Below, in pieces: positions 23,444-61,984 of a stretch of DNA of 64,000 nt. Source of the stretch: Minisyncoccota bacterium (GTDB lineage: Bacteria; Patescibacteriota; Minisyncoccia; Phycocordibacterales; XYD1-FULL-46-19). Each line of letters opens with the position of its first letter. Position 1 is the stretch's first letter. Below the pieces are notes generated by a model, which saw only the letters and a list, made by a program, of their open reading frames with translations, ran no database searches and had not been told where the DNA came from. The stretch lies in contig JBBABX010000001.1 in assembly GCA_041657405.1 (NCBI GenBank), positions 106,316-170,315 of the forward strand, in the 5' to 3' direction. The position numbers were made by a program, and so were the translations under genes.

Positions 23444-25921
23444 ATGCAAAAAAAGAAACAGCAAGTAATAAATTATACTATAAAATTTATCTTATTGGTT
23501 TTAATTTTAGGTTTTGTCTCGAGTGGAATCACAACAATTTGGGCAATTTCCCTACCAGTACCCGATTTTGAAACTTTTTTTGAAAAACAAATAAACCAAG
23601 CATCCACTAAAATCTATGACCGAACCGGCAAAACCCTGCTTTATGATGTTCGTGGTATCCGTCGAACAGTCGTCTCTTTTGAAAAAATACCGAGCCATAT
23701 CAAACAAGCAACTTTAGCCATAGAAGATGCTGAATTTTATACTCACAAAGGGGTCGATATAAGCTCTATTGCTAGAGCTTTTTGGGTTAATTTAGTCTCT
23801 GGTGGTATTCATCAAGGTGGTTCAACTATCACTCAACAAGTTGTTAAAAATTCTCTTCTTACCCAAGAAAAAACCCTAACTCGAAAAATAAAAGAGGCTA
23901 TCTTGGCGGTTAAAATGGAACAAACAATGTCTAAAGATGATATTTTAAATATTTACCTCAATGAATCACCTTATGGTAGTAATATTTATGGAGTCCAAGA
24001 GGCAGCTAAGGCTTATTTTAAAAAAGACATTAATGATATAACCCTAGCCGAAGCTGCTTATCTAGCCTCCCTTCCTCAGGCCCCTGGTTATTATTCCCCT
24101 TATGGAAAAAATAAAGCTAAACTAGATGATCGCAAGAATTTGGTTTTAAATCAAATGGTCAAAAATGATTTTATCACTGAAGAGGAGGCTGAAAAAGCCA
24201 AAGTTGAGGAAGTTGTATTTTATGAAAAAATAAATCAAAGCATCAAGGCCCCACATTTTGTATTTTTTATTAAAGAATATTTAGAAAATAAATATGGCGC
24301 AGACAATATTCAAAATAAAGGTTATAAGGTTATAACCACAATTGATTGGGATCTTCAACAAAAAGCTGAGGAATTAGCTAAAAAACACGGTGAAGAAAAT
24401 GAAAATAAATTCAATGCTCAAAATAATGGGGTTGTAGCAATCGATCCTAAGACTGGGCAAATTTTAGCTATGGTTGGCTCTCGTGATTATTTTAATCAAG
24501 ATATTGAAGGTAATTTCAACGTTACTACTGCCCATCGACAACCTGGTTCATCTTTTAAACCAATAGTTTACGCTACCGCCTTTAATAAAGGCTACACAGA
24601 TAAAACTGTTGTTTTTGATTTAAAAACTGAATTTAATACAAACTGCAGCCCCACAGGCATCCCTTTAACAACTGGGGCGCAATGTTATTCCCCTGTTAAT
24701 TATGACGATAAATTTGTTGGACCGATAACCCTAAGAGAGGCTTTGGCTCAATCTAGAAATATTCCAGCAATTAAAGTTCTTTATTTAGCAGGAATAAACA
24801 ATTCCCTAAATACAGCTCGTTCTTTGGGAATTTCAAGTTTGAGTGATAAAAATCAATACGGACTAACTTTAGTCCTTGGGGGTGGGGAAGTTTCTTTATT
24901 AGAAATGACTGGGGCTTATTCTGTTTTTGCTAATGAGGGAATAAAAAATAAAATAACCGGTATCTTAAAAGTTGCAAATCCTAATGAAAAAATAGTGGAG
25001 GAATTTATTTCTAAACCAGAGATAGTCATGCCAGAAAATACCGCTAGAATAATAAGTAATATATTATCAGACGATGACGCTCGCGCTCCAGCTTATGGCT
25101 ATCATTCCTTACTTTATTTCTCTAATAAAGATGTTGCTGTTAAAACAGGAACAACTAATGATTATAAAGATGCTTGGATAATTGGCTACACTCCCAATAT
25201 TGTAATTGGTGCTTGGGCAGGAAATAACGACAATACTCCTATGGCTAAAAAAGTAGCTGGTTATATAATTACCCCTCTTTGGCATGATGTGATGCAAACA
25301 GCTCTTAATCGTCTTCCTGATGAACGTTTTATTCCACCAATTTTAAATTATGAGGGGTTAAAACCAATAATGAAAGGTTATTGGCAAGGAGGAGAAATAA
25401 ATTTTGTTGATTTACCAAATCAACAAAATTTAGAATATATAAATAATTCAATTCATTCCATTCTTTATTGGATTGATAAAAATAATCCAACAGGTCAATC
25501 TCCTTCAAATCCTCAAAGAGATCCTCAGTTTAATCTTTGGGAATATCCGGTAAAAATTTGGGCTACTAATAATAATTTAGATTCTGGTAAAACATTTATT
25601 AATACTCAAGATGGGGAAAATTTAGAAAACAACTTAGAAGATATTTCTTTTAATATTACTTCCCCAAAACAAGGTGATAATATTGAACTTAAAAAAACCT
25701 TAAGAGTAGTTTTAGACATCCCAGAAAATATTGAAATTTCACAAATTAATTATTTTTTAAATAATTATAGTTTAGGAACAAATAAAAAACCTCCCTATAC
25801 TACATCCTTTACCCCCTCTCGATTAAAATTAGAACCTGGAAGTTATGATCTTAGGGTGGTTGTTTACGATAAAAAAGATAACCCCTTTGTTAAATCAATT
25901 ACAATAAATCTAATTAATTAG
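23444..25921 (+). CDS. bifunctional penicillin-binding protein 1A (glycosyltransferase GT51 + transpeptidase)
   Basis: GT51 motifs EDAEFYTHKGVD, GGSTITQQ; TP motifs SSFKP, KTGTTND; N-terminal TM anchor. Confidence 0.9.
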   Translation: MQKKKQQVINYTIKFILLVLILGFVSSGITTIWAISLPVPDFETFFEKQINQASTKIYDRTGKTLLYDVRGIRRTVVSFEKIPSHIKQATLAIEDAEFYTHKGVDISSIARAFWVNLVSGGIHQGGSTITQQVVKNSLLTQEKTLTRKIKEAILAVKMEQTMSKDDILNIYLNESPYGSNIYGVQEAAKAYFKKDINDITLAEAAYLASLPQAPGYYSPYGKNKAKLDDRKNLVLNQMVKNDFITEEEAEKAKVEEVVFYEKINQSIKAPHFVFFIKEYLENKYGADNIQNKGYKVITTIDWDLQQKAEELAKKHGEENENKFNAQNNGVVAIDPKTGQILAMVGSRDYFNQDIEGNFNVTTAHRQPGSSFKPIVYATAFNKGYTDKTVVFDLKTEFNTNCSPTGIPLTTGAQCYSPVNYDDKFVGPITLREALAQSRNIPAIKVLYLAGINNSLNTARSLGISSLSDKNQYGLTLVLGGGEVSLLEMTGAYSVFANEGIKNKITGILKVANPNEKIVEEFISKPEIVMPENTARIISNILSDDDARAPAYGYHSLLYFSNKDVAVKTGTTNDYKDAWIIGYTPNIVIGAWAGNNDNTPMAKKVAGYIITPLWHDVMQTALNRLPDERFIPPILNYEGLKPIMKGYWQGGEINFVDLPNQQNLEYINNSIHSILYWIDKNNPTGQSPSNPQRDPQFNLWEYPVKIWATNNNLDSGKTFINTQDGENLENNLEDISFNITSPKQGDNIELKKTLRVVLDIPENIEISQINYFLNNYSLGTNKKPPYTTSFTPSRLKLEPGSYDLRVVVYDKKDNPFVKSITINLIN

Positions 25922-25922
25922 A

Positions 25923-26180
25923 TTATTTGATATTTAAAATAATTTTTTCACCCAGTCTTTTTTTAATCTCGTCCAAAATCTGATTTTTTTGGATTAAAAT
26001 AGTTAATTTTAATTTTGTTGTTGTTTTTAAATAAAGATTATTATTAGAAATATTAAAATCTTCTTTTTTTAAATCTACATCAATTAGATCTTTAACTATT
26101 TTTATAACTTCATCTTTTATTAAAGAAGATTTAATTAAATTAATTTGGTATTTTTGTAAATAATTTAAAATATTATCCAT
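25923..26180 (-). CDS. hypothetical 85-aa protein downstream of dnaN
   Basis: ORF only; its position after dnaN recalls small S4-like or DciA-like genes in other bacteria, but no motif confirmed. Confidence 0.35.
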   Translation of the reverse strand: MDNILNYLQKYQINLIKSSLIKDEVIKIVKDLIDVDLKKEDFNISNNNLYLKTTTKLKLTILIQKNQILDEIKKRLGEKIILNIK

Positions 26181-26183
26181 TTG

Positions 26184-27293
26184 TTATGATTTTGATCTTA
26201 TCGGCATTACAATATAACTAAAAGATTCATCTCCAACCCCTTGAATTAATAGGGGTTTATCTTTACTGGTAAATTTTAAACTCAAATCTTTTTGGTTAAT
26301 AATTGACAAACAATCAATTATATATTTAACATTAAAACTAATTGTTAAATCTTCACCCTTTATATTTGTTATAATTTGTGAAATATTTTCCCCAATATCT
26401 TGATTTAGAGCTGTAACTTCAAAAATATTTTCTTTAGATTTAATTATAAAATCAATTTGACTATATTTATCTGAAAAAATATTAGCTATTTTTAAATTAT
26501 TAATTAAATCATTATGAGTGATAATTACTTCTGTTTTATGATTTTGGGGCATAATTTGACAATAATCAGGATAATTACCATTAATTATTCTCGATGTTAA
26601 ATGAATAAAATCTGAAATAAAAGATATTTGATTACCATCTGAAGTTATTTTTAAAACAGAATTAAGACGATCAAAAACCCTGATAATTTCATTAACATTT
26701 CTAAAAGGAATAATTATTGGGGAAAAATCTCTAATTTTTTCTTTTAAAGTAATTTTCTTTTCTGCTAAACGAAAAGAATCGGTTGCAACAAATATAATCT
26801 CATTACTGTTTTTATAAATATAAACACTTGCTATTTCTGGTTTTATATCAGAAATAGCTGAAGCAAAAACAACAGAACGAAGACTATTAATAAAATCACT
26901 ACTGTTTATTTCAAAACTATCACCCTTAATAACTTTTGGGATAATTGGGAAATCATCTATTGGCAAACTTTTTATTGTAGTAGATGTTAATTCAGTATTA
27001 ATTTTAATATTTCCCTTGTCTGAAGTTATTTTTAATTTATTTTCTTTTTGTAAATTAGAAAGAAAAGTGCTTAAAATTATAGCATTTACGGCGATTTCAC
27101 CTTCTTCTTCAACTTTTGCGGGAATTTCAATTTCTAAACCAATTTCTAAATTAGTTGCTTTTATAATTAACGATTTATTTTTTGCTTGAAGTAAAATTGA
27201 ATTCAAAATTGGTAAACTTAAATTTTTACCACTAGCTTTTTCGGCTAAAATAATACCCTCTTGTATTCTTTCTTTTAAGCATTCTATAATCAT
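26184..27293 (-). CDS. dnaN: DNA polymerase III beta sliding clamp
   Basis: 369 aa, three-domain clamp; N-terminus MIIECLKERIQEGIILAEKASGKNLSLPILNSILL; sits immediately downstream of dnaA. Confidence 0.9.
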   Translation of the reverse strand: MIIECLKERIQEGIILAEKASGKNLSLPILNSILLQAKNKSLIIKATNLEIGLEIEIPAKVEEEGEIAVNAIILSTFLSNLQKENKLKITSDKGNIKINTELTSTTIKSLPIDDFPIIPKVIKGDSFEINSSDFINSLRSVVFASAISDIKPEIASVYIYKNSNEIIFVATDSFRLAEKKITLKEKIRDFSPIIIPFRNVNEIIRVFDRLNSVLKITSDGNQISFISDFIHLTSRIINGNYPDYCQIMPQNHKTEVIITHNDLINNLKIANIFSDKYSQIDFIIKSKENIFEVTALNQDIGENISQIITNIKGEDLTISFNVKYIIDCLSIINQKDLSLKFTSKDKPLLIQGVGDESFSYIVMPIRSKS

Positions 27294-27504
27294 ATTAAGT
27301 ATTTTATTTAAGTATTCTATTACTATTAATATTGTTGATATGTGGAAAATTAAATCTAATCTTATTTATCAACCTATTTATTAACATTTAATTATAATTA
27401 AATGTTAATAAATAGGTTGATAAATAATTAATATTTTTTATTTTAAAATTATCCATAAATTATCAATACAATTTCCACAAGTTTTTCCACAAATTTTAAA
27501 CAGT
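27294..27504. promoter_or_regulatory. dnaA-dnaN intergenic oriC-like region with DnaA-box-like 9-mers (TTATCCAtA, TTtTCCACA x2) and a large palindrome
   Basis: seen directly; classic origin context. Confidence 0.55.
27362..27427. repeat. 66-bp perfect AT-rich palindrome (ttatttatcaacctatttattaacatttaattat | ataattaaatgttaataaataggttgataaataa)
   Basis: verified by reverse-complementing the left arm by hand. Confidence 0.8.
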
Positions 27505-28875
27505 TTAAGAAGTGTAAAGTAGGGATCTAATTTGTTCAATTTCTTGATTCAAAAGTGAATTATTTTTCATATCATTTTTTATTTTTTCATAAGCATGAAT
27601 AACTGTTGTGTGATCCCTTCCTCCTAATTTTTGACCAATATAAGGGTAAGAAGTATTAAAATCTTCTCTTAAAATATACATTATTATTTGACGCGGTTTA
27701 ACAACCTCCTTTCTCCTTGTTTTTTCATAGAGGATCTTTTCTTCAATATTATAATAATTAGCAACAACACTTAAAACATCTTTAATAGAAAGGGTTTTTT
27801 TAGGTTTAATACTATATTTAATCATTTGTTTTATTTCTTGTAGAGTCAACTCTCTTCCTTTTGAATTAATCTGGCAGGAAATGGATTTTAAAGCGCCTTC
27901 TAACTCACGAATATTATCCTGAATAACAGAAGCTAAGTATTCTAATATTTCTTCAGCAATAGATATTGAATTACTTTTTGTTTTGTTTTTTAAAATTGCT
28001 AAACGAGATTCATAATCAGGTTTAGAAACATCAACAATCATTCCTCCTTCAAACCTAGAACGCAATCTTTCTTCTAGGTTAGGAATATATTTAGGTGATT
28101 TATCAGAAGAAAAAATAATCTGTTTATTATTTTCATAGAGATGATTAAATAAATGAAATAGTTCTTCTTGAAATTTTTCTTTATTAGAAAAAAATTGGAC
28201 ATCATCCATTATTAATAAATCATATTTTCGATATTTTTCTTTAAATTGATTAGCTTTATTACTTTGGATAGAATTAATATAATCAATTCCAAAATTTTCC
28301 GAAGTTACATAATAAACACTTTTTTCAGGAAAACTACTTTTAATATGGTTGCCGACTGCTTGAATTAAGTGAGTTTTTCCTAACCCTGTCCCACCGTAAA
28401 TAAATAAAGGATTATAAACTTGCCCAGGATTTTTTAAAATAGCTTGAGAGGCTGCGTAGGCGACATCATTAAAAGAACCTACTATAAAATCATTAAAAGT
28501 ATATTTAGGGTTTAAATTACTTTCTTTGTTTATATACAAATCTTTAAGACCCAAATCATCAACAGCTGAAATTGTTTTTTCTGTTTTTTTATCTTTAGAT
28601 TGTTTTAATTTATCCTCTAATTTTATTATTTGATATTCTATTGATCTAATATCGGGGTCGATATCCCTTAAGGATTTTAGAATAAATTTATGATATTTAT
28701 TAGATAACCAATCACGAACAAAAGTATTGGGGACATTTAAAAAAACAATACCATCTTCAACTTTGTTTATTTCAGTATGTTTGAACCATGTGCCAAAATT
28801 AGCTTTAGAAATACCCATTTCTATCTCATTAAGAGTGTTACCCCAAAGCTTTTTAGTATCTAATGTTTCATCCAT
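27505..28875 (-). CDS. dnaA: chromosomal replication initiator DnaA
   Basis: Walker A LFIYGGTGLGKTHL, Walker B LLIMDDVQF, sensor; C-terminal DNA-binding domain ...LGGRDHTTVIHAYEKI. Confidence 0.95.
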   Translation of the reverse strand: MDETLDTKKLWGNTLNEIEMGISKANFGTWFKHTEINKVEDGIVFLNVPNTFVRDWLSNKYHKFILKSLRDIDPDIRSIEYQIIKLEDKLKQSKDKKTEKTISAVDDLGLKDLYINKESNLNPKYTFNDFIVGSFNDVAYAASQAILKNPGQVYNPLFIYGGTGLGKTHLIQAVGNHIKSSFPEKSVYYVTSENFGIDYINSIQSNKANQFKEKYRKYDLLIMDDVQFFSNKEKFQEELFHLFNHLYENNKQIIFSSDKSPKYIPNLEERLRSRFEGGMIVDVSKPDYESRLAILKNKTKSNSISIAEEILEYLASVIQDNIRELEGALKSISCQINSKGRELTLQEIKQMIKYSIKPKKTLSIKDVLSVVANYYNIEEKILYEKTRRKEVVKPRQIIMYILREDFNTSYPYIGQKLGGRDHTTVIHAYEKIKNDMKNNSLLNQEIEQIRSLLYTS

Positions 28876-28893
28876 TAACTAGATTATATTCAT

Positions 28894-28902
28894 TGTGGAT
28901 AA
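28894..28902. promoter_or_regulatory. perfect consensus DnaA box (TGTGGATAA = rc TTATCCACA) upstream of dnaA
   Basis: seen directly; a second weaker box (agtggatta) lies about 45 nt away. Confidence 0.6.
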
Positions 28903-29051
28903 GTTAAGCAAACTTTACAACTATGTTTATAAGTAGTGGATTAGTTGTTAATTACTTTTTGTTTTTTTTAAAATTTAAAAACAACTTGTAAAATAAGAGT
29001 TTTTAAGAACCAAGTATTGATTATTTTTTTAAATAATATAGAATTAAAATT

Positions 29052-29186
29052 ATGTCGTTTACATACAAACCCAAAAAAAAGAAAAGAGCTAAAACACATG
29101 GTTTTTTGGCACGAAAAGCAACTACTGCTGGGAAAAAGGTTCTTAAAAGACGAATAGCTAAAAAAAGGTCTAAATTAACTGTTTAG
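29052..29186 (+). CDS. rpmH: 50S ribosomal protein L34
   Basis: MSFTYKPKKKKRAKTHGFLARKATTAGKKVLKRRIAKKRSKLTV; not in ORF track (44 aa); canonical position upstream of rnpA. Confidence 0.85.
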   Translation: MSFTYKPKKKKRAKTHGFLARKATTAGKKVLKRRIAKKRSKLTV

Positions 29187-29190
29187 TTTA

Positions 29191-29547
29191 ATGTTTCCCC
29201 AAAAGAGGAGGATAAATAAAACTCTTTTTCCAGATATTCTTAAAAAGAGTATTTTTTTTAAAGGGGTGGAGATATCTTTAAGGGTTTCTCCTCAAATAAA
29301 TAAAACTTTTCCATCTCTATTTAGTGTCGTTATTTCCTCTAAAGTGTCCCCTAAGGCGGTTGAGCGGAATTTTTTAAAAAGAAGAGTCCGATCTGCTCTA
29401 CAAAGTCAACTAGATAAGATTAAAGCAGGATATTATTTAATTTTTTATATAAATGATAAAAATTTAGCCAATTTGGATTTTTTAAAACTAAAAGAAAAAA
29501 TCTTAATTTTAATTAAAAAAGCAAAACTTCTTAATAAAAATGTTTAA
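29191..29547 (+). CDS. rnpA: ribonuclease P protein component
   Basis: 118-aa basic protein directly after rpmH; ...RNFLKRRVRSAL... RNR-like motif. Confidence 0.8.
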   Translation: MFPQKRRINKTLFPDILKKSIFFKGVEISLRVSPQINKTFPSLFSVVISSKVSPKAVERNFLKRRVRSALQSQLDKIKAGYYLIFYINDKNLANLDFLKLKEKILILIKKAKLLNKNV

Positions 29548-30283
29548 AACCCTTCTTTTTAACCCCCTTTATAACATCCTCATTATTATTATTAACCTTA
29601 TCCCTGGTGGTGATATTGGTTTGGCGATTATTATTTTAACAATTTTGATTAAACTTTTAATTTTACCGATTTACATTAAATCAATTAGAACTCAGGTGAA
29701 AATGAAGGAAATAGAGCCTAAACTTAAAGAAGTAAAACGAAAATATGAAAAAGACTTACCTGAACAATCAAAACAAATAATGGAGCTCTATAAGGAAAAC
29801 AAGGTTAACCCCTTTTCTAGTTTTTTAGTTTTACTTATCCAATTACCAATAATTCTAGCTTTATTCTATGTTTTTCGTGATAGTTTGGTTGTTCATCAAG
29901 ACATAATCTATTCTTTTGTTTCCATTCCAGAGAAAATTAATCCTCAATTTCTTGGTTTAATTGATATCTCAATGAATAAAAATGTGGTTTTGGCAATTTT
30001 AACTGGTTTAACTCAATTTATTCAAGTTCAGTTGACAATGCCTAAGCCAAAAAATAAAAAAATTAGTCCTCAATCAAAAGAACAACCAACTTTTGGGGGT
30101 GATTTTGCTCGTAGTATGGATATCCAAGTGCGCTATGTTATGCCATTTATTATTTCTTTTATTGCTTGGCAATTACCAGCCGCCATCTCTCTTTATTGGA
30201 TAACCAGTAATATCTTTCATTTAGTATCTGGTTTGAAAATAAAAAAAGAACAAAACAACCCCCTTTCTTTTAAGGAGGTTTAA
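29540..30283 (+). CDS. yidC: membrane protein insertase YidC (short monoderm form)
   Basis: 247 aa, 5 TM, follows rnpA; KLLILPIYIKSIRTQVKMKEIEP and conserved C-terminal TMs. Confidence 0.8.
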   Translation: MFKTLLFNPLYNILIIIINLIPGGDIGLAIIILTILIKLLILPIYIKSIRTQVKMKEIEPKLKEVKRKYEKDLPEQSKQIMELYKENKVNPFSSFLVLLIQLPIILALFYVFRDSLVVHQDIIYSFVSIPEKINPQFLGLIDISMNKNVVLAILTGLTQFIQVQLTMPKPKNKKISPQSKEQPTFGGDFARSMDIQVRYVMPFIISFIAWQLPAAISLYWITSNIFHLVSGLKIKKEQNNPLSFKEV

Positions 30284-30296
30284 GTTTTCTGTTACT

Positions 30297-31532
30297 CTAA
30301 TTATTTAAAGAGATAATTCTTATTTTTTTACTATTCCGGTCAATAGCAAAAATCTCATTTTGGTCTTTATTGTATTTTAGATTTATCAAATCACCCAGCA
30401 TCTGATTGTCGGTAATCAAATTAACATTACCATTAGAAGCGTTTATTACCCAAAGATTGTCATCAAACCGAACTTTACCTTGGTACCAATCATCAGGGTA
30501 GTTGGCTTTTGTGATATTCTTAGGCACAGCACAAAAAATCATATCCCCAACCTCATTCCAAACACATTTTTCAGGGAAAGTTGATAAGCTTAAGCGGAAA
30601 GATTTGTCTAGTTTGTAATCGTAAAGATAGGTTGAAATATTATCTAAGGTGTTACGAGAGTAGATTATTTTATTAGCATTCGGCCCAACTAAGGCGAGCA
30701 AACCCTCAATATTTCTTAGAATGGGTTCAAAAGAGCCATTATTGATATTTAAAAAGAAAAGATGGCCTGGAACATCAAAAGATGGTTTGGTTTGAAAAGT
30801 AATATAATTTGGATTGGGCCAACAAATTGACCATTCACTAAGGGGAGAGGAGAAAATTTTCTTTTGGTTGTTTAAATTAAAATCAGCAATATAACCATCT
30901 ATTCCCCCCTGTCTTCCATTTATAACAAAAACCTTGTCTTTTTGAGGGGAAACAGTAAAAGATAAAAGATTATCACTCAAAATATTTGTTTCCAGCTCCT
31001 TTATTTCACCAGTTTTGGTTAATTTGATTAAGCCTGAGGTGTTGTTGAATAAACCACTATTTGAACGGCGTAAAATTAAGCGTAGGCCGTTTTTATCCAA
31101 ACCCCAAACAACTTCCTCAACTCTAGGAAAAGTTGTATTTGTGAGACGATTTAAACCTTCTGATGGGGTATATTCAAAAATATTGCCACTAGGTTTGTCA
31201 AAAATAAAAATTTTAGTAGTGGTTCCTATTTTAAAAGCACTTAAACTCAGTGCGGATAGATTATCAATAGATAAGAATGAGAGATTGTTTTCCGTAGTTT
31301 CCCCTATTAATTTAATAGAATTATCAGAATTCTCACCCTGATTGTCTGGAATATCTGATTCCACATCTTCTTTTTCTAATGAACGGTTGTCAGAGATAGG
31401 AAAAACTGGACCAGGTGATTGTGTTTGAGTTTTTAAAGAGTCTCGGTTTTGAAAGAAAAAGACATAAAAAATAACATCCAAAGTGATAAAGATAATAATT
31501 ATTAAAATAATTAAAAGAGTTTTTTTTGTCAT
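30297..31532 (-). CDS. membrane-anchored extracytoplasmic protein, unknown function (last gene of the T4SS-like operon)
   Basis: N-terminal TM MTKKTLLIILIIIIFITLDVIFYVFFF then a 380-aa soluble domain. Confidence 0.45.
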   Translation of the reverse strand: MTKKTLLIILIIIIFITLDVIFYVFFFQNRDSLKTQTQSPGPVFPISDNRSLEKEDVESDIPDNQGENSDNSIKLIGETTENNLSFLSIDNLSALSLSAFKIGTTTKIFIFDKPSGNIFEYTPSEGLNRLTNTTFPRVEEVVWGLDKNGLRLILRRSNSGLFNNTSGLIKLTKTGEIKELETNILSDNLLSFTVSPQKDKVFVINGRQGGIDGYIADFNLNNQKKIFSSPLSEWSICWPNPNYITFQTKPSFDVPGHLFFLNINNGSFEPILRNIEGLLALVGPNANKIIYSRNTLDNISTYLYDYKLDKSFRLSLSTFPEKCVWNEVGDMIFCAVPKNITKANYPDDWYQGKVRFDDNLWVINASNGNVNLITDNQMLGDLINLKYNKDQNEIFAIDRNSKKIRIISLNN

Positions 31533-31534
31533 TT

Positions 31535-31957
31535 TTAAAGGTTTAGATTAAATTGGACTAAATCTGGATTAATTATATAAAGAATTAAATAAGAAAAGCC
31601 AGCGATTGCTAATCCCCAAAAAGCATCTTTTAGTCTTTTCTTTGCTTTTGATTTGCTTGAGATCACATCAGTCATCATATATTCGAAACCAGCCCAAACA
31701 ATCATAATAACGGCCGCTGAAAAAACTATTACAAAGAATGTTTGGTAAGCTCCCTTAAGATAAGTTGTTAGTTTTATAGGTTCTTTTGCTATTTCTCCGA
31801 TCCCTGTTAAAGCGCTGGGTTCTAGAAGAATATATCCAGTTTTATTTTCTTGCTGTGCGGAAGCTTTAAGAGCCAAAGTTAAGTAACTAAGAAAATATAA
31901 ATAAATCAAACTGTAAAAAAAATTTTTTAATTTAATTTGAATCATTATTAAAGTCAA
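31535..31957 (-). CDS. VirB2/TrbC-like pilin candidate
   Basis: long signal peptide ending ALKASA|QQ; ~105-aa mature part with two hydrophobic helices separated by a basic loop (SSKSKAKKRLKD), the VirB2 topology; sequence family unverified. Confidence 0.4.
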   Translation of the reverse strand: MTLIMIQIKLKNFFYSLIYLYFLSYLTLALKASAQQENKTGYILLEPSALTGIGEIAKEPIKLTTYLKGAYQTFFVIVFSAAVIMIVWAGFEYMMTDVISSKSKAKKRLKDAFWGLAIAGFSYLILYIINPDLVQFNLNL

Positions 31958-32963
31958 TTACCTGCTTATTGAAATTTATTAATAAAGAGCTGATTGCTTT
32001 TTGTGTAGAATTACTATTTGCAACAACTAGATTTATTTTGCTTAAACCCTCCGTCTCTGGTTTATAACGAAAAGTGACTAAAGAATTATCATTTGGTGGG
32101 GTAAATTTTTGATTATTTAATAACCAACTAAATGAAGGTTGTCCAATTTGGTTTAAACCAAAGAAATAAGGTTGAGCTTTGATTGTTATTTCTTGGTTGA
32201 TCAAAGTTAGGTTGTTACTCAAGGCATTATTATAGTCTATTCCCTCGAGCGGCTTTGATTCATAGAAAATAATTTTTGGTGCTTGGGGTTTTATTGATAA
32301 ACTATTTTCGGCTACTAAATTATTAGAAGAATCACTGACTAAAACATTTATTATTTTTTCTGTGAAATCTTTGTTGGCAGAAGTCAAAAAGGTGTTTCGT
32401 CCGATACCAGAAGAATTAGAAACTAAATTTCCATTAATATACCAACGGTAAGAAAGATTTTCTGATAAAGTTTTTTTGCCTGAAGAATTAATGATATTTG
32501 GAATAGCCCAAATTTTGATCAAGCTTTCTGGGGTTGGTAAGGCTTTGCCGCGGTAAAAATTAGGGACTTCCGTGCCGGCTTGCCAAACTAAATTAACTTC
32601 AGCTGGTTCAAAAATTAAAGTTTTTGACATCTGATACTGGTTATTTTTGATGATTATTTTCACTTGATTACTTGTACCAGCTTTTCCAACAAAAAAAGAA
32701 AACTGCTTTTTATTAGTATAAGAATCTTGTAGTTTATTATCTAAATACCAATTAATAAAATTACCCTGAAGATTAAAACCAAAACTTTTTAAAGTTATAA
32801 TAACTCGTTCGCCTGGAGAGGGATTTTCGGGGCGAACTTCGGCAATAAAATTACCCGATGATTCAATTTCTCGGACAGCAAAAACTAAAGTTGGAAAAGA
32901 TATCTGTAGTAAAATGAAAAAGATAAAAATTTTTTTCATACAAGTTTTATTTAATTGCGGCAA
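31932..32963 (-). CDS. secreted protein, unknown function
   Basis: signal peptide MKKIFIFFILLQISFPTLVFA; Asn/Ser-rich. Confidence 0.45.
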   Translation of the reverse strand: MPQLNKTCMKKIFIFFILLQISFPTLVFAVREIESSGNFIAEVRPENPSPGERVIITLKSFGFNLQGNFINWYLDNKLQDSYTNKKQFSFFVGKAGTSNQVKIIIKNNQYQMSKTLIFEPAEVNLVWQAGTEVPNFYRGKALPTPESLIKIWAIPNIINSSGKKTLSENLSYRWYINGNLVSNSSGIGRNTFLTSANKDFTEKIINVLVSDSSNNLVAENSLSIKPQAPKIIFYESKPLEGIDYNNALSNNLTLINQEITIKAQPYFFGLNQIGQPSFSWLLNNQKFTPPNDNSLVTFRYKPETEGLSKINLVVANSNSTQKAISSLLINFNKQVIDFNNDSN

Positions 32964-33372
32964 TTTTATTAAACTTTCCAGTTCCGCTGTTTTTAAAATC
33001 TCCTAAGGCGGTGGCTAAGGCTTGGGCAGCCAAGGGTGAAATGGAACCAGCAACATCTTCAGCATAAGTAATTGCCAATAATATTATAACACTAGAAGTC
33101 CAAGCGGGTAAGCTGTTAATAACGGGAAAAAACTCCAAAAGAAATGACCCTCCCATAGTCAAAGCTTTGTTGGGCTTTGCAAAACTTAGACCTTTTAATT
33201 TAAACCAAAACCAAAAAGTTAAAAAAGACCAAAAATTTATGAAAGGATTTACTAACCAACCAATCGTTCCCACAGAGATAAGATCAATGAGGGCTTGCAG
33301 GCCATCATAAATTAGGGCAACTATTACCATGAAGATCCCGATTATCGGATTTATTCTCAATTTTAACTTCAT
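32947..33372 (-). CDS. small polytopic membrane protein (T4SS-associated)
   Basis: 3-4 TM helices; immediately upstream partner of the VirB4-like ATPase operon segment. Confidence 0.4.
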   Translation of the reverse strand: MKLKLRINPIIGIFMVIVALIYDGLQALIDLISVGTIGWLVNPFINFWSFLTFWFWFKLKGLSFAKPNKALTMGGSFLLEFFPVINSLPAWTSSVIILLAITYAEDVAGSISPLAAQALATALGDFKNSGTGKFNKIAAIK

Positions 33373-53329: not shown

Positions 53330-54028
53330 TTAAAAATGATTTAAATTTTTAGGTCGATACTGAAATGCTTCTAACAAATGTTCTTCTCTGATATCTTTTT
53401 CTTCAGCGAGATCCGCAATCGTGCGAGCTAATTTAATAAGTCTATGATAGGCACGAGCTGAAAGGTTTAACTTGGAGGCTGATTCATTTAATAATTTTTG
53501 GCAGACGTTATTAAGTGGGGCATATTTTTCTAAATCCCTAGTATTCATCTCGCTGTTATAATATTTATTTCTTTCTTTTAGTCGTTCAGTTTGAATTGCA
53601 CGAGCTTTGACAACTCTTTCAAGAACTTTTTGGGAATATTCTCCTTTTTCTGTTTCGCTTAACTTTTTATATTCTACGGTGGGCACTTCTAACCATAAAT
53701 CAATGCGATCTATGACTGGACCGGAAATTTTATGTTGATATTTTTGAATTTGTCCCATTGAACAAACACATTCTTTAACGCGTGAACCAAGATATCCACA
53801 AGGGCAAGGATTCATTGCAGCGATCAAAATAAAATTAGCTGGGAAGTTCATATGTCCGCGCGAACGAGAAATACTTATGACCCGATCTTCTAAAGGTTGA
53901 CGCAGGGCCTCAATCACTTTTTTGTCAAATTCCGGAAATTCATCCAATGCCTTTGTCCCACAATTGTCTACTGGCTCACTTTTTAGTAGTATCTGACCAT
54001 GTACGACAATGGAAGTGTAGGAGAGCAA
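53330..54028 (-). pseudogene. comM: comM/yifB (Mg-chelatase-like competence protein), 5'-truncated: only the C-terminal ~230 aa present
   Basis: hallmark LDEFPEF...ALRQPLEDRVISISR...AAMNPCPCGY; Lon-like N-domain and Walker A are absent; homology stops at the junction with GC-richer foreign DNA. Confidence 0.7.
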
Positions 54029-54211
54029 ATACTGAATGGGGTCTTTAATGCCCTTTGGATTATTGCCCTACCTTTTGTTGGTATCTATCTATTATTGAAA
54101 TGGTTTGTTGTGGGAATAACAAAAGAAACTGGTAATAGGATTATAAAAATAGTGGGTGGAGCAATTGCTGTCGGAATAGTTGGATATATCTCAACTTTCT
54201 TTCTCAATTAA
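53999..54211 (+). CDS. small 2-TM membrane protein at the island edge (tentative)
   Basis: ATG ORF, 70 aa, hydrophobic (WIIALPFVGIYLLLKWFVVGI..., GGAIAVGIVGYISTFFL). Confidence 0.3.
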   Translation: MYDNGSVGEQILNGVFNALWIIALPFVGIYLLLKWFVVGITKETGNRIIKIVGGAIAVGIVGYISTFFLN

Positions 54212-54213
54212 AT

Positions 54214-54246
54214 TGTAGGACGTTTCTTATAAGGTGTGTCCCACAA
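54214..54246 (+). repeat. copy 1 of 33-bp hairpin motif TGTAGGAC-N16-GTCCCACAAA
   Basis: tgtaggacgtttcttataaggtgtgtcccacaaaa; seen directly. Confidence 0.6.
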
Positions 54247-54248
54247 AA

Positions 54249-54632
54249 TTAACTACTAGGATTGCAATTTAAGTATCTAAATGAATTATTTTGTCCTTGC
54301 CCCCAAGCCACCACTATTTTTTTATTAAGATACCTGTTTCTTATCTCATCGGGAGCAATTTTTCCTTCAAACTCCCACTTTGTGGGTTCGTACTCAGCTT
54401 TTTTCCATCTATCTATACTAAATACACCCTTTACTCTGTTTTGGTAAATAGCTAGTGCATAGTCTACTAAATCTTTAGACTCGCCAGTTTTGCTTAAAGA
54501 CCAAGCTTGTTTGGCTATATCGTAAATAGAGTTCTCATCCCCTTCCATGTGGGGTCTATAAGTTTGCGATATGTTCAACAATATAACTTTATCCTCTATG
54601 TCTTCCAGTCTAATTTCTTCTAAATTCTCCAT
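54249..54632 (-). CDS. hypothetical protein (127 aa)
   Basis: ORF; divergent partner of 54880..55581; bracketed by the hairpin-motif copies. Confidence 0.4.
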   Translation of the reverse strand: MENLEEIRLEDIEDKVILLNISQTYRPHMEGDENSIYDIAKQAWSLSKTGESKDLVDYALAIYQNRVKGVFSIDRWKKAEYEPTKWEFEGKIAPDEIRNRYLNKKIVVAWGQGQNNSFRYLNCNPSS

Positions 54633-54810
54633 GCTTTAATTGTAGCAAAGCGGTAGCTATTACAAAAAGTCTGCCCCACAATACGTTACTATTTAGGTAT
54701 GGTTTCAAAATTAAGAGCTTCAATCATTGTAGTGATTGTTGGACTAGCTTCTTTCTGGTTGGGTATGCAGACAGTAGTTCCTTGTGATTGTATTTCCAGA
54801 TTTGCTCTAC

Positions 54811-54843
54811 TGTAGGACACGATTTACGGTACGTGTCCCGAAA
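54811..54843 (+). repeat. copy 2 of 33-bp hairpin motif (tgtaggacacgatttacggtacgtgtcccgaaa)
   Basis: seen directly in the divergent intergenic region, ~37 nt upstream of the 54880 start. Confidence 0.6.
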
Positions 54844-54879
54844 CTTGCTTTACGTTGGTAGTCATATACGATAGATTCT

Positions 54880-55581
54880 ATGCCGAATAATAATTTCCAA
54901 ACACTACTGAAATTCTTTCTGGATGAGTTTGAAATGGAACTATTATTTGATCAAAGAAAACCTCAAAATATACAAGAAGGGATTTTAATCACTATCTTTA
55001 ATAGGATAAATGATATTCATACAATAATAGAACGACTTGGTCGTTACGATGTTTATTTTGATGCTTTTTATCCAGAAAATGATAGTCAGATTAGTGACGC
55101 TGAAGCAATTGAGTATCATCTCCACAGTTACTTACAGGACTTTTATTCTTTAAACGAGAAAGTTAATAGATTACTAGGATATATAAAGAACAATATTAAA
55201 CATTTTGATGTTGGTAATCCAGATGTTGTTAAAAAATTATTGGAACACTTACTCAATCAGGTTGGAAATGGTTTGAAGCAGGTTAATAATTTACGTGGTG
55301 ACCACGTCCATGACATGTCTGTTCGTGACAGTGAAATCTCAAGAGCAAAAATGCTTAAGACTTTAATGGGTTTTCATGAGGGAATTGACGAGCAAGCTGT
55401 AAAGGAAAAATACCAAACCATTATTGTAGAGACAAAGAAGAAATATGTTGGTCAAGCAGAAGCCAATAGAGAACAATTAAATGGAATGCGAAACTTTATC
55501 GCCCCAAGACTAGGACATGTTATTGCTTTCTTATATCAAAAGGACAGCTCTATATTTGAGAAAGAAATGTCACAAAATTAA
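54880..55581 (+). CDS. hypothetical protein (233 aa)
   Basis: ATG ORF, no recognisable motif. Confidence 0.45.
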   Translation: MPNNNFQTLLKFFLDEFEMELLFDQRKPQNIQEGILITIFNRINDIHTIIERLGRYDVYFDAFYPENDSQISDAEAIEYHLHSYLQDFYSLNEKVNRLLGYIKNNIKHFDVGNPDVVKKLLEHLLNQVGNGLKQVNNLRGDHVHDMSVRDSEISRAKMLKTLMGFHEGIDEQAVKEKYQTIIVETKKKYVGQAEANREQLNGMRNFIAPRLGHVIAFLYQKDSSIFEKEMSQN

Positions 55582-55694
55582 GTGACAACTACTGCGGTTA
55601 ACGTCCTGTAAAAGATTACGATAGTTAACGTATCCTCTCGTACGCGTGTACGCGCGCGGGAATGTGCCTTAAATATGGACTTGGGATATTGGTT

Positions 55695-55728
55695 TGTAGG
55701 ACAGCTATTAGTATTTCTGTCCCACAAA
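55695..55728 (+). repeat. copy 3 of 33-bp hairpin motif (tgtaggacagctattagtatttctgtcccacaaa)
   Basis: seen directly between 55581 and 55870. Confidence 0.6.
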
Positions 55729-55869
55729 CCGTACTGTGGATATGTGGATAATTAAGTAAATTAGCCCTAAAAGCCATACTCTTGAACGTATTTGCTTGAC
55801 TTTTTCCTACTTAGTCAATAGACTGAATAAGTAAGTGGTGTTTCTTAATCACTCCACTGAATAAGGAAA

Positions 55870-57294
55870 ATGAACAAGGAAGCAATCGAATACATACAAA
55901 ATCAAATGAACAGAAGTGAGGACAGGCTTCGCCCGTATGTTTTTGCTACACCTACGTTCACCTTCCCTGAACGCCATGTTGTTATTCGTATTAAAAAGTA
56001 TGTTTCTGATTTTCTTGGAGGGAAACGAGACTTTCGTTGGGTAGTTGTGCCTGGTCTTCGTGGAGTTGGTAAGACAACTGCAATGGCACAAGTCTTTCTT
56101 ACTGCGAAAACAACTCGAACAAAAAGTGACTTTTTATATATGTCTGTTGATGACCTCACTACCAGAGGTCTTTCGTTGAATGATGCTCTGGATGCATACG
56201 AAGTAATTTTAGGAAAACCATTTGAAAAACTAGACAGCCCTGTCTTGATGTTTATTGACGAAGTACAACAAGATCCAAACTGGGCAGCTATTCTTAAATC
56301 ACTTCATGATAGAGCAAGAAATGTATTTCTCTTCTGTACTGGTTCGTCTGCTGTTTCTCTCCAGTCAAACCCTGATGTAGCTAGACGTGCACAATTTGAG
56401 AAATTGTACCCATTGAGTTTTGGTGAGTACGAGATGATTAAAAATAACATCTTTCCGCAAAAGGGTCTTAAAGAAAGAATCAAGGAAGCTTTATACGGTG
56501 CTTCAAATGCAGAGGACGCATATAACAGACTCAAACCATTGGAAGCTTCTGTCGCTTCACAGTGGGCAAAATTTGACCGCTCAAATATAGACGAATATCT
56601 ACTCAATGGTACGTTACCTTTTACGCTCAAAGCAATTACTCCTAACGCCTACGACAACATAAATATTCTACTCGATAGAATTATCGACAAAGACATCAAA
56701 GAGTTGGGGCAGTTTGACGCGGCTACCTTAAGTGCAATAAAACGACTTCTTTTCATAATGGCTGACAGTGACATCATCAGTGTCAACAAAGTGAAAGACA
56801 TCATAAACCTAAGCTACAACACAGTGATGTCCGTGTTGGATGTTCTGGAACGTGCGGAGCTTATTATTAAAGTTCCAGCACAGGGTTCTAAAACAAGCCA
56901 AGCACGCAAACCATCAAAGTATCTGTTTATGAGTCCAGCACTTCGTTCAGCATTGTTGAGTGTGAGTGGTGTAGAGGGTACTTATCTCGCACGCAAAGGG
57001 AAATATTTGGAAGACATCGCAGGGCTACACTTCTATCGAGAATTTGTTGCTCCACGTATTGGCTCTCTTACCCACGACCCAACACAAGGGAGTGCTGATT
57101 TCATTTTACAGATAGCCGACAAGAAACAGTTAGCGTTTGAAATGGGACTTGGTAGAAAGGGTTATGACCAAGTCAAAACAACAATGGGAAACTTCAAGAT
57201 TGATTTTGGAGTGGTTGTTTGTGCAACTGACCTCATGCTTTCAAGAGAAGATAATGTTCTCAAACTACCATTGGACTATTTCCTATTGATGTAA
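55870..57294 (+). CDS. AAA+ ATPase of the AAA_14 + DUF4143 architecture
   Basis: Walker A VVPGLRGVGKTTAM, Walker B LMFIDEVQQDPNW, ...FCTGSSA...; GC-rich. Confidence 0.65.
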   Translation: MNKEAIEYIQNQMNRSEDRLRPYVFATPTFTFPERHVVIRIKKYVSDFLGGKRDFRWVVVPGLRGVGKTTAMAQVFLTAKTTRTKSDFLYMSVDDLTTRGLSLNDALDAYEVILGKPFEKLDSPVLMFIDEVQQDPNWAAILKSLHDRARNVFLFCTGSSAVSLQSNPDVARRAQFEKLYPLSFGEYEMIKNNIFPQKGLKERIKEALYGASNAEDAYNRLKPLEASVASQWAKFDRSNIDEYLLNGTLPFTLKAITPNAYDNINILLDRIIDKDIKELGQFDAATLSAIKRLLFIMADSDIISVNKVKDIINLSYNTVMSVLDVLERAELIIKVPAQGSKTSQARKPSKYLFMSPALRSALLSVSGVEGTYLARKGKYLEDIAGLHFYREFVAPRIGSLTHDPTQGSADFILQIADKKQLAFEMGLGRKGYDQVKTTMGNFKIDFGVVVCATDLMLSREDNVLKLPLDYFLLM

Positions 57295-57339
57295 TTCCTA
57301 TCCCTACTAAATAAGTTTATCTGAGGGTGTCGTGGATGT

Positions 57340-59104
57340 TCACGAGCCTTTTTTATTTGTGGTTGTGCCTTTATACATACCTGGATTAGCAACAAGCAAA
57401 TCACGGCTCCGCTCATGCTGACTCAATGTTTTGATATGCAATATAAGTCTCATGTTGTCCTGCTGTGAAACAGGCTCGATGTGTTTATCACTCATCACAC
57501 GTGTCGAAACGGGAAACCTAAAGAATACCTCGGCATAGTTCTTCTTAGGGAATAGGTTAATCCTCTCAATGAACAAACGAAGTATGTACTGCTTATCCTC
57601 GTAGCTGACGTTTTCCAGTCTCGTCTTGATTTGCTCGTACAACTTTTTAAGCACAACCCCTCTATCTTTCCGTTCGTCACGTTTAATGAGTACCTGTTCA
57701 AACTTAGCTTTCTGATTCTCCATTGCTTCAATGTTCTCGTTACACTCCTTTAAGTGTTGCTCACATTCTTTCTCTGGAAGACTCTTAAACATGAAAGCTC
57801 TGGTAATTCGAGCACGTTGCTCTAGGAGTGATTTGATTTGCTTCTCACACTGAGCAATTTTCTCATTTGCTTTTTCTGCACTTGAATTCTTGAATGTGTA
57901 CTCTTCCAGTTTCGGTATGACATTCTCAGGGTCTTTAAGTATGGAAACGAGACACTCCCAAATCGGCTCGAGTCGTGTCTCGGCGTACTGATATCGTACA
58001 AATTTATTCTCTGGATTATTCGCGTTCTCTAACATATGTGTGATAGTACTTTCCTAGTGTCCGTGAGTCCTTTCCAACTTTTGGAGTTTGGTACCCACTT
58101 TGCAACTTGTTACCTGTCTCTCCACAATAAAGGAGTGTTGAGTACAGGTATGGTCTCTTTGTGTTTCGCTTTGAGTTCTCTCGATTCTTTTTGAGTTGCT
58201 GTATTGAAGCCTGAAACATTTCCTTACTAATGATCTGCGGAACTTTAATTGGTATCCATTCTTCTTCTGGTCTCTGATGTTCTTCTTCAAGTACAGCGTC
58301 AAGATACTTAAATGGTCTCTTGTACTTCCTGTAGTAGAAATCTCCTGTGTATACCTCGTTAACCAAAAGACGATTTATGCTCCGCTTCCACCAGTAGTTA
58401 AACGTCTTACGTTTTTTCTGGGTGTTGTGTTTTGGAGCCGGCATTTCCAATTGATTTGCTCGCTTCGTAATCTCAGTGAGTGAGCAACGCTCGTACACAA
58501 GCCAGTGGTAGAACTGCTTCACGACCTCAGCTTCCTCTGGAATGATTTCCAATTGCTTAGTCTTCTTATCTACCTTATAGCCATAGGGAGGAACGCCAGT
58601 GACCCACTTGTTGTCTCGTGCCGCCTGTTCACGTCCTCCACTCATTCGTTCCCTAATAACTTCACGTTCAAGCTCTGCAAGACTCCCCAACATTTGAAGT
58701 ACGAATCTTCCGTTTGGTGTACTGGTATCAAATGATTCAGTAGCCGACTTGAATTCAATATCAAGTTCGAGAAGTTTCTCAACAGCGTCTAGGAGCTTTC
58801 TGGTACTCCTAAAAAATCTGTCTAGACGATACACAATAACGATGTCGAACTTCTTTGCCTTTGCGTCCTCAAACAATTTCTTCAATCCGTCACGTTTCTC
58901 AATCGCCAGTGAGCCAGATTTACCCTCATCTCCGTATGTGAGTATATTTTCAATATCATACGAATCAGGTTGGCTCTCGCAGAACTTCTGCAAGCGTTCC
59001 TTTTGTACTTTGATTCCATACTTATCATCCTTTGCTTGCTCATCAGTAGAAACTCGTGTGTACAATGCAACTCTCTTCTTTTGTATATTTAACTCAGTCA
59101 TCAT
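57340..59104 (-). pseudogene. large serine recombinase (resolvase catalytic domain + recombinase domain + coiled-coil) interrupted by a 1-nt frameshift at ~58016-58035
   Basis: N-terminus RVALYTRVSTDEQ (catalytic Ser); ORFs 58016..59104 (362 aa) and 57340..58035 (231 aa, coiled-coil) overlap by 20 nt in different frames; combined ~590 aa is typical for this family. Confidence 0.7.
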
Positions 59105-59108
59105 TACA

Positions 59109-59360
59109 TTACTTATTGATTACACCCCTAAAGATTCTGCGTAGATGACGTGTTAGCAACATGCGATACATCCGCTTGATGTTGGGAAGCAATTTTTTTG
59201 ACATAGATTGATTTTTAATATCGATACAGATATTTTTCTCATTAACTGGTAAATTGTGTTTGTTACAATATTCAAGCAAAGACGCTTTCTGCCCCTCCGC
59301 TTCTTCATTAGTAGATGTACGTATGTACAATGCTACATTGGGATTTTTTACATTAGTCAT
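59109..59360 (-). pseudogene. second serine recombinase, N-terminal catalytic fragment only (83 aa)
   Basis: NVALYIRTSTNEEAEGQKASLLEYC... parallels the resolvase catalytic motif; truncated after ~80 aa; directly upstream of the large recombinase. Confidence 0.5.
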
Positions 59361-59571
59361 AATTTTTTTGGTTAAATCTCACTACCAGTCGTCCGTCCTT
59401 GCTCTTTACGTAGAATTTCTTTGATTTAGGAAACCCTGACTCAATGAGCAAGTTCCTGACGAAGCTTTCTGGTGTGAATCTTTTAATTTTGCGATTGGTT
59501 TGTTTTTTCATATTCCTATAAAACGCTGTATTTAAGCCATTTATAGGACATATTAGATACGGATAGGACAA
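59353..59571 (-). CDS. hypothetical basic 72-aa protein
   Basis: ORF only. Confidence 0.3.
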   Translation of the reverse strand: MSYPYLICPINGLNTAFYRNMKKQTNRKIKRFTPESFVRNLLIESGFPKSKKFYVKSKDGRLVVRFNQKNYD

Positions 59572-59839
59572 CTAAGTACAGGTAAGTACAACTATTAGCT
59601 GTCTATAACTTTTCTGAAAATCGCGCGTGCAGACCCCTTTCTACTTTCTGGCAAAGAAAATAAATGAATTCCTGCCTGGCTCATTTCAAACTACATATCC
59701 AGCAAACAAACCATTTTGTAATTTATCTTTTAATTAATAATTATCTTTTGTCTGAATCACTGTGAGTATACTTTGTGCCTTTTTACGTGAATCTCCCTGA
59801 TACAACTTTGAATCACCCTGATTCACGTGACCGTACTCA

Positions 59840-60526: not shown

Positions 60527-60854
60527 GCATTACTGTAGTATCTGTCTGAGGTGTGTGAACTATTAGAGCAGTTTTGATCTCAGATATGTGTCCTTGAAGG
60601 CTCTCTCGCTCGATGATTTGAATCATGATTGGATTATCTTTGTCTCCACCCACTTTATGCTTATGTGCTTTTGATTCCTCAATAATGTAGTGGAGCGTTT
60701 CCTTAAATTCACTTGTCTCAATGGCTGATTTAATAGGCGAATCGATAAACATTGATGTCAGCATTGGCAGTGATTTTTTAATTTCGTTTAGCTCCGCCAT
60801 TTCCTCCACTTTTTTTGTGGTAACAAATGGACTTAGTATTGGTTCTTTTTTCAT
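60498..60854 (-). CDS. hypothetical protein (118 aa)
   Basis: ORF only. Confidence 0.3.
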   Translation of the reverse strand: MKKEPILSPFVTTKKVEEMAELNEIKKSLPMLTSMFIDSPIKSAIETSEFKETLHYIIEESKAHKHKVGGDKDNPIMIQIIERESLQGHISEIKTALIVHTPQTDTTVMLGGTGCVLS

Positions 60855-61091
60855 TTTGTTTTGATTTATTACTTGTTAATTCTTTAGGATTCGACTTTCT
60901 GTTTTGTGCCCAGTCGAAGAAAAGCTCCCACGATGTGTCGTGTTCAACCTGAGTTTCTTCTGCTGTAATAAAAAATCGCTCCATATGTGGAACGATAACC
61001 TAAAATACTTGACCTGTTTAATTTTCTATTTTATAAAAATAACCACCTTTTCCAGCTATTGTTCACCTAATCACTCACCTAACGCACTCAG

Positions 61092-61862: not shown

Positions 61863-61984
61863 TCACTAATGATAAACAAAACTCGCCAAAATGACGAGTT
61901 TTACGTTTGTGGTAAGTAAACCACACACCTGACCCTTTCCATACCTCTAAGAGTGTCTGAGGGACTCTGGTATTGGTAGATATC

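Follow-up and report, generated by a model that had tools for sequence, protein, structure and literature searches.

The incC part of the Bacillus subtilis chromosomal origin, oriC, carries a basal unwinding system made up of DnaA-boxes 6 and 7, DnaA-trios and an AT-rich element [Richardson 2016/2019; Pelliciari 2021, PMC8287927]. The published search rules for such systems call for a DnaA box with ≤2 mismatches, an optional second co-oriented box with ≤4 mismatches, a spacer of ≤16 bp and then ≥3 NAN trios on the strand that has its 3' end towards the box (PMC8287927). A distal box of incC acts by way of a helically phased loop (PMC6669920). The origin of C. difficile is bipartite, and its oriC2 undergoes DnaA-dependent melting in the dnaA–dnaN spacer, where the trio 5'-CACCTACTACTATTACTACTATGA-3' (CAC CTA CTA CTA TTA CTA) precedes the experimentally mapped unwinding region (PMC7561715). 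We found no paper in the literature on oriC architecture in Paceibacteria/Patescibacteria. The present analysis concerns the spacer between dnaA and dnaN in a 64-kb stretch of DNA from a bacterium of this group (the window, meaning the whole stretch analysed), and a perfect palindrome of 66 bp that lies in this spacer.

That the spacer, at positions 27294–27504, is the chromosomal origin of a Paceibacteria bacterium (Patescibacteria, or Candidate Phyla Radiation, CPR) is well supported. It is likely, with a probability that we put at roughly 0.65, that the locus is an ordinary origin of the B. subtilis kind to which a recent, strain-specific palindrome has been added, and that this palindrome does not serve as the unwinding element, being most likely either dispensable or no more than modulatory.

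The origin and its predicted unwinding module

The 211-bp spacer separates dnaN (26184–27293, minus strand; 369 aa), which encodes the beta clamp of DNA polymerase III and has three DNA_pol3_beta Pfam domains (E 1e-17 to 1e-23), from dnaA (27505–28875, minus strand; 456 aa), with the DnaA_N, Bac_DnaA and Bac_DnaA_C Pfam domains. Divergent from dnaA, on the plus strand, are rpmH (29052–29186; Ribosomal_L34), rnpA (29191–29547; Ribonuclease_P) and yidC (29540–30283; 60KD_IMP). The Pfam assignments agree with the gene order given in an earlier note on this DNA, which also had the spacer length right. The arrangement is that of B. subtilis, where the origin likewise lies between dnaA and dnaN, and rpmH-rnpA-yidC are on the other side of dnaA.

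For comparison, 93 dnaA–dnaN spacers were taken from metagenome and GTDB contigs; 76 of them are distinct, and their DnaA proteins are 37–100% identical to that of the window. Conservation was judged on 75 distinct spacers (DnaA 52–100% identical), one Treponema outlier being left out. The close relatives by DnaA identity are L012 and L013 (93%), L007–L009 (91%), L002 (89%), and L003–L005 and L010 (88%). The closest named DnaA homologues are those of Candidatus Paceibacterota/Vogelbacteria (Patescibacteria), and the nearest GTDB species representative, a metagenome-assembled genome of Candidatus Vogelbacteria, has a DnaA that is 76% identical. A DnaA identical to that of the window is encoded on contigs of 0.2–1 Mb.

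DnaA boxes are concentrated in the spacer, where the earlier note had seen several near-consensus sites: three are present with ≤1 mismatch and 10 with ≤2 mismatches, against window means of 0.11 and 0.95, respectively, per 211 bp. The spacer is the top box peak of the 64 kb (10, the next peak having 5), a level reached by 0 of 2000 shuffles, and 10 is also the maximum among the 76 distinct spacers, whose median is 6.

The third line of evidence is strand composition, measured as GC skew at third codon positions (GC3 skew) in plus-strand letters and as a local test confined to the 64 kb. GC3 skew is negative in essentially all genes from 467 to 25921, about zero for dnaN and dnaA, and positive from 29052 to ~54000 on both gene strands. 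The cumulative third-position G–C count is V-shaped, with a minimum of -553 at 25923–27293 followed by a rise. Mean GC3 skew is -0.249 on the left (25 genes) and +0.145 on the right (22 genes; Mann–Whitney p = 2e-8), a difference independent of gene strand, and the best breakpoint falls at 25–30 kb. The raw cumulative GC skew is a noisy curve that dips lowest at ~44 and 64 kb; it was dropped as an origin test because it follows the coding strand. The earlier note had proposed cumulative GC skew as a check, a minimum elsewhere being held to speak against the origin, and at third positions the minimum is found at dnaN/dnaA. The assignment of oriC to this locus, which that note had made, rests on the agreement of gene order, the strongest DnaA-box cluster and the V-shaped minimum. 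The position of the origin in this uncultured CPR genome is thereby fixed, and it can serve for coverage-based estimates of replication rate and for orienting assemblies.

The dnaN-proximal part of the spacer is occupied by a module common to the 75 spacers, TTATCAAC-ATATCCACA-ggac-TAATAgTAATAAT followed by A/T-rich sequence; that is, two co-oriented boxes, a short spacer, DnaA-trio-like repeats with a period of 3 nt and an AT-rich tract. The 17-mer consensus of the double box, TTATCAACATATCCACA, is found with ≤4 mismatches in 71 of the 75 distinct Paceibacteria spacers, and the module usually ends 28–56 nt before the dnaN start. In the window the whole module covers 27294–27349. Its two co-oriented boxes are on the minus strand at 27333–27349, TTTTCCACA at 27341–27349 (1 mismatch) and ATATCAACA at 27333–27341 (2 mismatches). 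Five NAT trios follow on the plus strand at 27318–27332, starting 8 bp beyond where the first box ends and reading TAT AAT TAT CAT TAT in the 3' to 5' direction away from the boxes. The AT-rich tract, which extends from the trio-like repeats to the dnaN start codon (27294–27317; GC 0.09), has a counterpart in the 75 spacers. The 3-nt periodicity of the trios is kept in the 75 spacers, with T/A positions 74–96% conserved; read on the box strand, the trio consensus is CTA ATA GTA ATA ATA (complement 3'-GAT TAT CAT TAT TAT-5'), and the middle A and the third T of the trio are conserved.

The box, the second box and the NAN trios of the window all conform to the published rules for a basal unwinding system (PMC8287927). 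The resemblance to B. subtilis extends to the 4-bp spacer, which is G+C-rich in the relatives, to the placing of the AT-rich tract by dnaN, and to a distal box cluster set across a segment of constrained length, as in the phased-loop model (PMC6669920). The boxes, the G+C cluster of the relatives, the run of trios (5'-CTA-3' on the box strand) and the unwinding element before dnaN are also found in C. difficile, and the polarity of the trios is the same as there (PMC7561715). There are differences from B. subtilis as well. The two boxes of the window are offset by 8 bp and have one base in common, and the upstream one is a clade variant, TTATCAMC; the first trio positions are mostly T or C rather than G or A, and the G+C cluster is replaced by ATAT.

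The distal array consists of four plus-strand boxes with 11–12-bp spacing at 27449–27491 (TTATCCATA at 27449, TTATCAATA at 27460, ATTTCCACA at 27471 and TTTTCCACA at 27483) and points away from the unwinding module. Relatives with 88–93% identical DnaA have kept the two boxes of the array nearest to dnaA. In five lineages (DnaA 88–100% identical) the spacer is 211 or 212 bp long while its centre has diverged to chance identity, a fixed length with a diverged centre that fits the phased-loop model (PMC6669920).

By analogy with the characterized systems, we infer the following order of events. DnaA would bind the two co-oriented boxes at 27333–27349 and oligomerize onto the trio-like repeats of the plus strand at 27318–27332, and the duplex would then open in the AT-rich tract up to the dnaN start codon, 27294–27317 being the part predicted to open first. 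The distal four-box array may assist from ~110 bp away, bridged to the proximal boxes by the middle segment, whose length is conserved and whose sequence is not. Nearest-neighbour calculations show the whole spacer to be weak, so duplex stability cannot alone locate the unwinding element: the 50-bp window that starts at 27284 is among the least stable of the 64 kb and is equalled by the one from 27419, and the least stable 20–30-bp duplex of the spacer starts at 27420–27421. The clade-wide conservation of the module in Paceibacteria is a new observation, if a modest one; it extends the box-box/trio/AT-rich module described in Firmicutes to 75 distinct Paceibacteria dnaA–dnaN spacers.

Structure and ancestry of the palindrome

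Between the distal and proximal boxes lies a feature that sets the window apart from B. subtilis, the 66-bp perfect palindrome at 27362–27427. Its arms (27362–27394 and 27395–27427) are 33 nt each, 100% complementary and joined without a loop. Size and position are as the earlier note gave them, and so is the unusual length, the next loop-less perfect palindrome in the 64 kb being of 18 bp. The description ‘AT-only’ has to be corrected, since the 66 bases comprise 29 A, 29 T, 4 C and 4 G (8 G/C bases). No second copy of an arm exists in the 64 kb with ≤3 mismatches. As single-stranded DNA, the palindrome folds with the full hairpin as centroid (-27.4 kcal/mol), and the minimum free energy of the spacer has a z-score of -6.1.

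Palindromes are known trouble spots in assembly, and the earlier note had raised the possibility of an artefact. An independent ENA contig (L001; MEGAHIT, k141) is identical to the window over 3228 nt, including the palindrome and both flanks. Two Logan contigs, L110 and L111 (runs SRR18595299 and SRR6484787), are identical over 3208 and 2155 nt, and both end at spacer position 114, 3 nt past the centre of the palindrome, with 30 nt of the right arm kept. Such breaks would be expected of a de Bruijn graph with k=31 when a true palindrome exceeds k in length; a contig should run through it only if longer read k-mers span it. Because the independent k141 assembly reproduces the palindrome and the k=31 contigs break at its centre, an artefact is very unlikely. 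One consequence of such breaks in short-k assemblies is that the origins of genomes of this kind may often sit at contig ends. A palindrome-free relative, L006 (contig k119_178764), also ends in its dnaA–dnaN spacer, 195 bp past dnaA (locus end at 4563), and AT-rich origin spacers may frequently break contigs from causes other than palindromes.

The palindrome was not found in any of the other 74 distinct spacers. When loops of ≤12 are allowed, the longest perfect inverted-repeat arm measures 4–10 nt in 73 of the 76 spacers, the exceptions being the Treponema outlier (12 nt), L011 (18 nt) and the window (33 nt). The nearest relatives (DnaA 88–93% identical, spacer 211–212 bp) have no palindrome at the same place, which is the middle of the spacer, variable in sequence and fixed in length. 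A cruciform element should be recognizable among related origins as an inverted repeat conserved in position and pairing, and none was found among them.

The arms were compared with the sister lineages in an ungapped register anchored on the proximal box, ‘left’ being the side of 27428–27448 and the chance level 0.37. The inner left arm matches at 16 of 18 positions and the outer right arm at 11–12 of 15, about as well as the flanks (72–80%). The outer left arm (7/15) and the inner right arm (8–10/18) are near chance. On this pattern, one half of each arm is ancestral and the other half mirrors the opposite arm. The G/C positions tell the same story: C13, C24, G54, G55 and G58 of the palindrome are common with the relatives, and each of the new ones, C9, C12 and G43, is complementary to an ancestral base of the other arm. 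About the same centre, the self-complementarity of the relatives is 11–13 of 33 positions, the chance level. This rules out a pre-existing quasipalindrome in the ancestor and makes a decaying ancestral palindrome unlikely.

Template switching is an established route to perfect hairpins (PMC7202029, PMC8794818). It has been described for quasipalindromes in the Ripley model, with E. coli reporters (PMC7202029), and for perfect hairpins (PMC8794818), as clustered changes by which one arm is made the complement of the other while the length stays the same. The window shows the same signs: the changes preserve length and each complements the ancestral base of the opposite arm, their direction being read from one sister clade. 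The case differs from typical events in that the relatives have no quasipalindrome, in that two opposite tracts are needed and in the much greater length of the 66-bp product. A single template-switch event is ruled out; one arm keeps its inner half and the other its outer half, which calls for two copied tracts or more. Since the arms are half ancestral, the new G/C bases complementary and the length unchanged, we infer that the palindrome was probably formed by recent templated inverted copying (template switching) in the lineage of this strain. At least two tracts would have been copied in opposite directions without change of spacer length. The first event could have made a 36-bp palindrome, the hairpin of which would favour the second. 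On this account, the window would show clearly, in a natural setting, how templated copying can create a long perfect palindrome de novo inside an essential cis-element, where it is tolerated.

Long palindromes occur near the origins of other Paceibacteria too. In 507 kb of relatives' loci, the long perfect inverted repeats without the A-run and T-run flanks of terminators are all in the two origin-flanking spacers, a pattern that is only suggestive since the sample is centred on dnaA. The dnaA–dnaN spacer contains those of the window (33-nt arms) and L011 (18-nt arms). The latter, in a relative whose DnaA is 78% identical, is a 37-bp palindrome at 2367–2403 with a 1-nt loop (AGGTAAAAATATATTATATTATAATATATTTTTACCT); it directly abuts tandem TTATCCAC boxes and its sequence is unrelated to that of the window. 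The rpmH–dnaA spacer contains those of L024 (2357–2414, 28-nt arms), L079 (2365–2421, the same as L097 1678–1734; 28-nt arms) and L103 (2366–2413, 21-nt arms). These have ~50% GC and unrelated sequences, and lie between divergent genes without T-runs. L079 and L103 have near-identical flanks around different palindromes, both bounded by AACCT...AGGTT, and the rpmH–dnaA spacers of L024, L079 and L103 are 154–167 bp long, compared with 86 bp in many relatives.

Several points weigh against an ordinary origin with an accidental palindrome. On the side of the origin, the first trio positions of the window are T, A, T, C and T (consensus G, T, C, T, T), unlike the G/A preference of characterized trios, and ATAT stands where the relatives have a G+C cluster (GGAC, CCCC). 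On the side of the palindrome, the direction of change depends on a single sister clade, the outgroups being too diverged in the centre. The 21 nt at 27428–27448 are also unrelated to the relatives, which template switching leaves unexplained. The 66 bp, identical and with zero mismatches in four data sets, could mean that selection maintains the palindrome, and L011 and the three lineages with rpmH–dnaA palindromes hint that hairpins near origins may not be purely accidental. Finally, the whole case is built on sequence analysis.

Other readings of the palindrome

The palindrome could instead be a functional module of the origin, either a cruciform driven out by supercoiling or a symmetric four-site DnaA array that tunes initiation in this strain. 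Cruciform-dependent origins are known from plasmids and phages, for example the pT181 family, whose initiator helps an inverted repeat to extrude as a cruciform. These are rolling-circle origins, and the extruded hairpin is cut by the Rep nickase. The window resembles them in having a long inverted repeat inside the origin that is able to extrude under negative supercoiling. It differs in that the initiator is DnaA, that there is no nickase and that the repeat is not conserved. The A/T-rich centre, TTAATTATAATTAA, and the perfect arms favour extrusion, as does the stability of the hairpin, and the palindrome has been preserved perfectly in the four data sets. A cruciform would take up ~6 turns and shorten the distance between the distal boxes and the unwinding module by ~66 bp.

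As to a DnaA array, the palindrome contains four box-like 9-mers, TTATCAACC at 27366–27374 (plus) and 27415–27423 (minus) and TTATTAACA at 27378–27386 (plus) and 27403–27411 (minus). The inner left arm has its box-like 9-mer (TTATTAACA, TTATCAACA or TTATCAACC) at spacer position 94–97, in the same orientation, in all close relatives. The palindrome repeats this conserved mid-spacer 9-mer in inverted form and adds a second inverted pair, TTATCAACC, and these additions account for the spacer having 10 boxes where those of the nearest relatives have 5. The palindrome could in principle extrude as a cruciform or bind additional DnaA. A functional module is nevertheless unlikely. The relatives lack the palindrome and their origins presumably work, the box-like sites carry two mismatches each, and perfection over 66 bp goes far beyond what protein binding needs and is what a recent templated event gives. 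The four data sets have zero differences over 2–3 kb anyway, so that their identity says little about selection.

The recurrence of long palindromes near the origins of other Paceibacteria lineages also speaks for a function. It could be taken further, to the proposal that long perfect palindromes are a recurrent, fast-turnover component of Paceibacteria origins, acting as supercoil-sensitive cruciforms or single-strand hairpins. They might then fix how the distal and proximal DnaA boxes are placed relative to each other, or assist the loading of helicase or primase in these reduced genomes. We regard this as speculative and improbable.

The earlier note saw in the palindrome the DNA unwinding element of a bipartite origin. 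In favour are its 88% A+T and its place between clusters of DnaA boxes, and few regions of the window are less stable than the spacer overall. The reading is nonetheless very improbable. The palindrome is not conserved, whereas the box/trio/AT-rich module is, and is found elsewhere. It lies on the double-stranded box side of that module, opposite to the direction of opening set by the polarity of the trios, which is towards dnaN. Nor does duplex stability point to it: the weakest 20–30-bp stretch is 27420–27449 and not the body of the palindrome. The neighbouring tract between the palindrome and the distal boxes (27428–27448) is A/T-only (GC 0.00) and at chance-level identity to the relatives. 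The palindrome is thus probably not needed for unwinding.

Still less is to be said for a hairpin acting in RNA, as a terminator or attenuator of dnaA or as a stabilizing 3' stem-loop in the dnaA–dnaN interval. The dnaA transcript would fold here into a stem of 31 bp, with U-rich stretches after it on both strands. Against this, a terminator scan scored no terminator-like site, and the relatives have no hairpin in this spacer. An Rfam search gave no family match, the sub-threshold ones being to eukaryotic microRNA hairpins and meaningless here.

The least credible reading, under which the palindrome is a miniature mobile element that inserted here or an error of assembly, can appeal to the two contigs that break at the palindrome and to the inserted look of the upstream palindromes in L024, L079 and L103, but is contradicted by the unchanged spacer length (211 versus 211–212 bp), by the in-register homology of half of each arm to the relatives, by the lack of a second copy in the 64 kb and by the k141 assembly, which passes through into unique flanks on both sides; blastn of the spacer against plasmid and phage collections gave no match.

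Upstream region of dnaA and neighbouring features

C. difficile has DnaA boxes upstream of dnaA as well, and so does the window. The exact TTATCCACA reported by the earlier note is present on the minus strand at 28894–28902. It lies in the spacer of a putative dnaA promoter (28883–28911, minus strand) made up of TTGCTT at 28906–28911, 17 nt and TATAAT at 28883–28888, the last ending 7 nt before the dnaA ATG. This promoter block is conserved down to 76% DnaA identity; a consensus promoter scan omitted it, the first hexamer matching 3/6, and it was read by inspection. Two co-oriented box-like 9-mers with 2 mismatches each, TTATAAACA at 28924–28932 and TAATCCACT at 28935–28943 (together 28924–28943, minus strand), form a block, AATCCACTACTTATRAACA, that is conserved in all relatives examined. 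One exact and two 2-mismatch boxes in 50 bp are fewer than the usual criterion for a cluster. They also differ from the many boxes of C. difficile oriC1 (9–19 across clostridia) in overlapping a putative promoter. The exact box would fit autorepression by DnaA of a possibly leaderless dnaA transcript at least as well as it would a bipartite origin.

The origin lies at the centre of a GC trough that extends from 25000 to 33000. GC content at third codon positions (GC3) is 0.10 in dnaN and 0.16 in dnaA, compared with 0.24–0.31 for the same genes in the closest relatives; the overall GC of the window is 0.36. The ATAT that stands in the window for the G+C cluster of the relatives is found alongside this trough.

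At the right-hand end of the window, 53330–64000 is a probable integrated mobile element. It contains the C-terminal half only of a comM-like Mg-chelatase gene (53330–54028, minus strand), an AAA_14/DUF4143 ATPase (55870–57294), a large serine recombinase (58016–59104) and a phage Rep-O-like protein (59840–60526). GC3 is higher here (0.35–0.49) and GC3 skew is opposite to that of the native right replichore. A second skew reversal at ~54–57 kb had been considered as a terminus or a misassembly; the return to negative skew after ~57 kb coincides with the foreign segment, and the integrated element explains it better. Two abutting DnaA boxes, ATATCCACA and TTATCCACA, are found inside the putative island at 55735–55751 (minus strand), ~120 bp upstream of the AAA_14/DUF4143 gene.

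Directly after dnaN is an open reading frame of 85 aa (25923–26180, minus strand), the position and length of which are kept in the relatives L002 and L003; a Pfam search with it gave no match. Beyond it, inside a penicillin-binding-protein gene (23444–25921), is a perfect inverted repeat at 25398–25432 with 16-nt arms and a 3-nt loop (TAAATTTTGTTGATTT ACC AAATCAACAAAATTTA), which is also present in L110 and L111.

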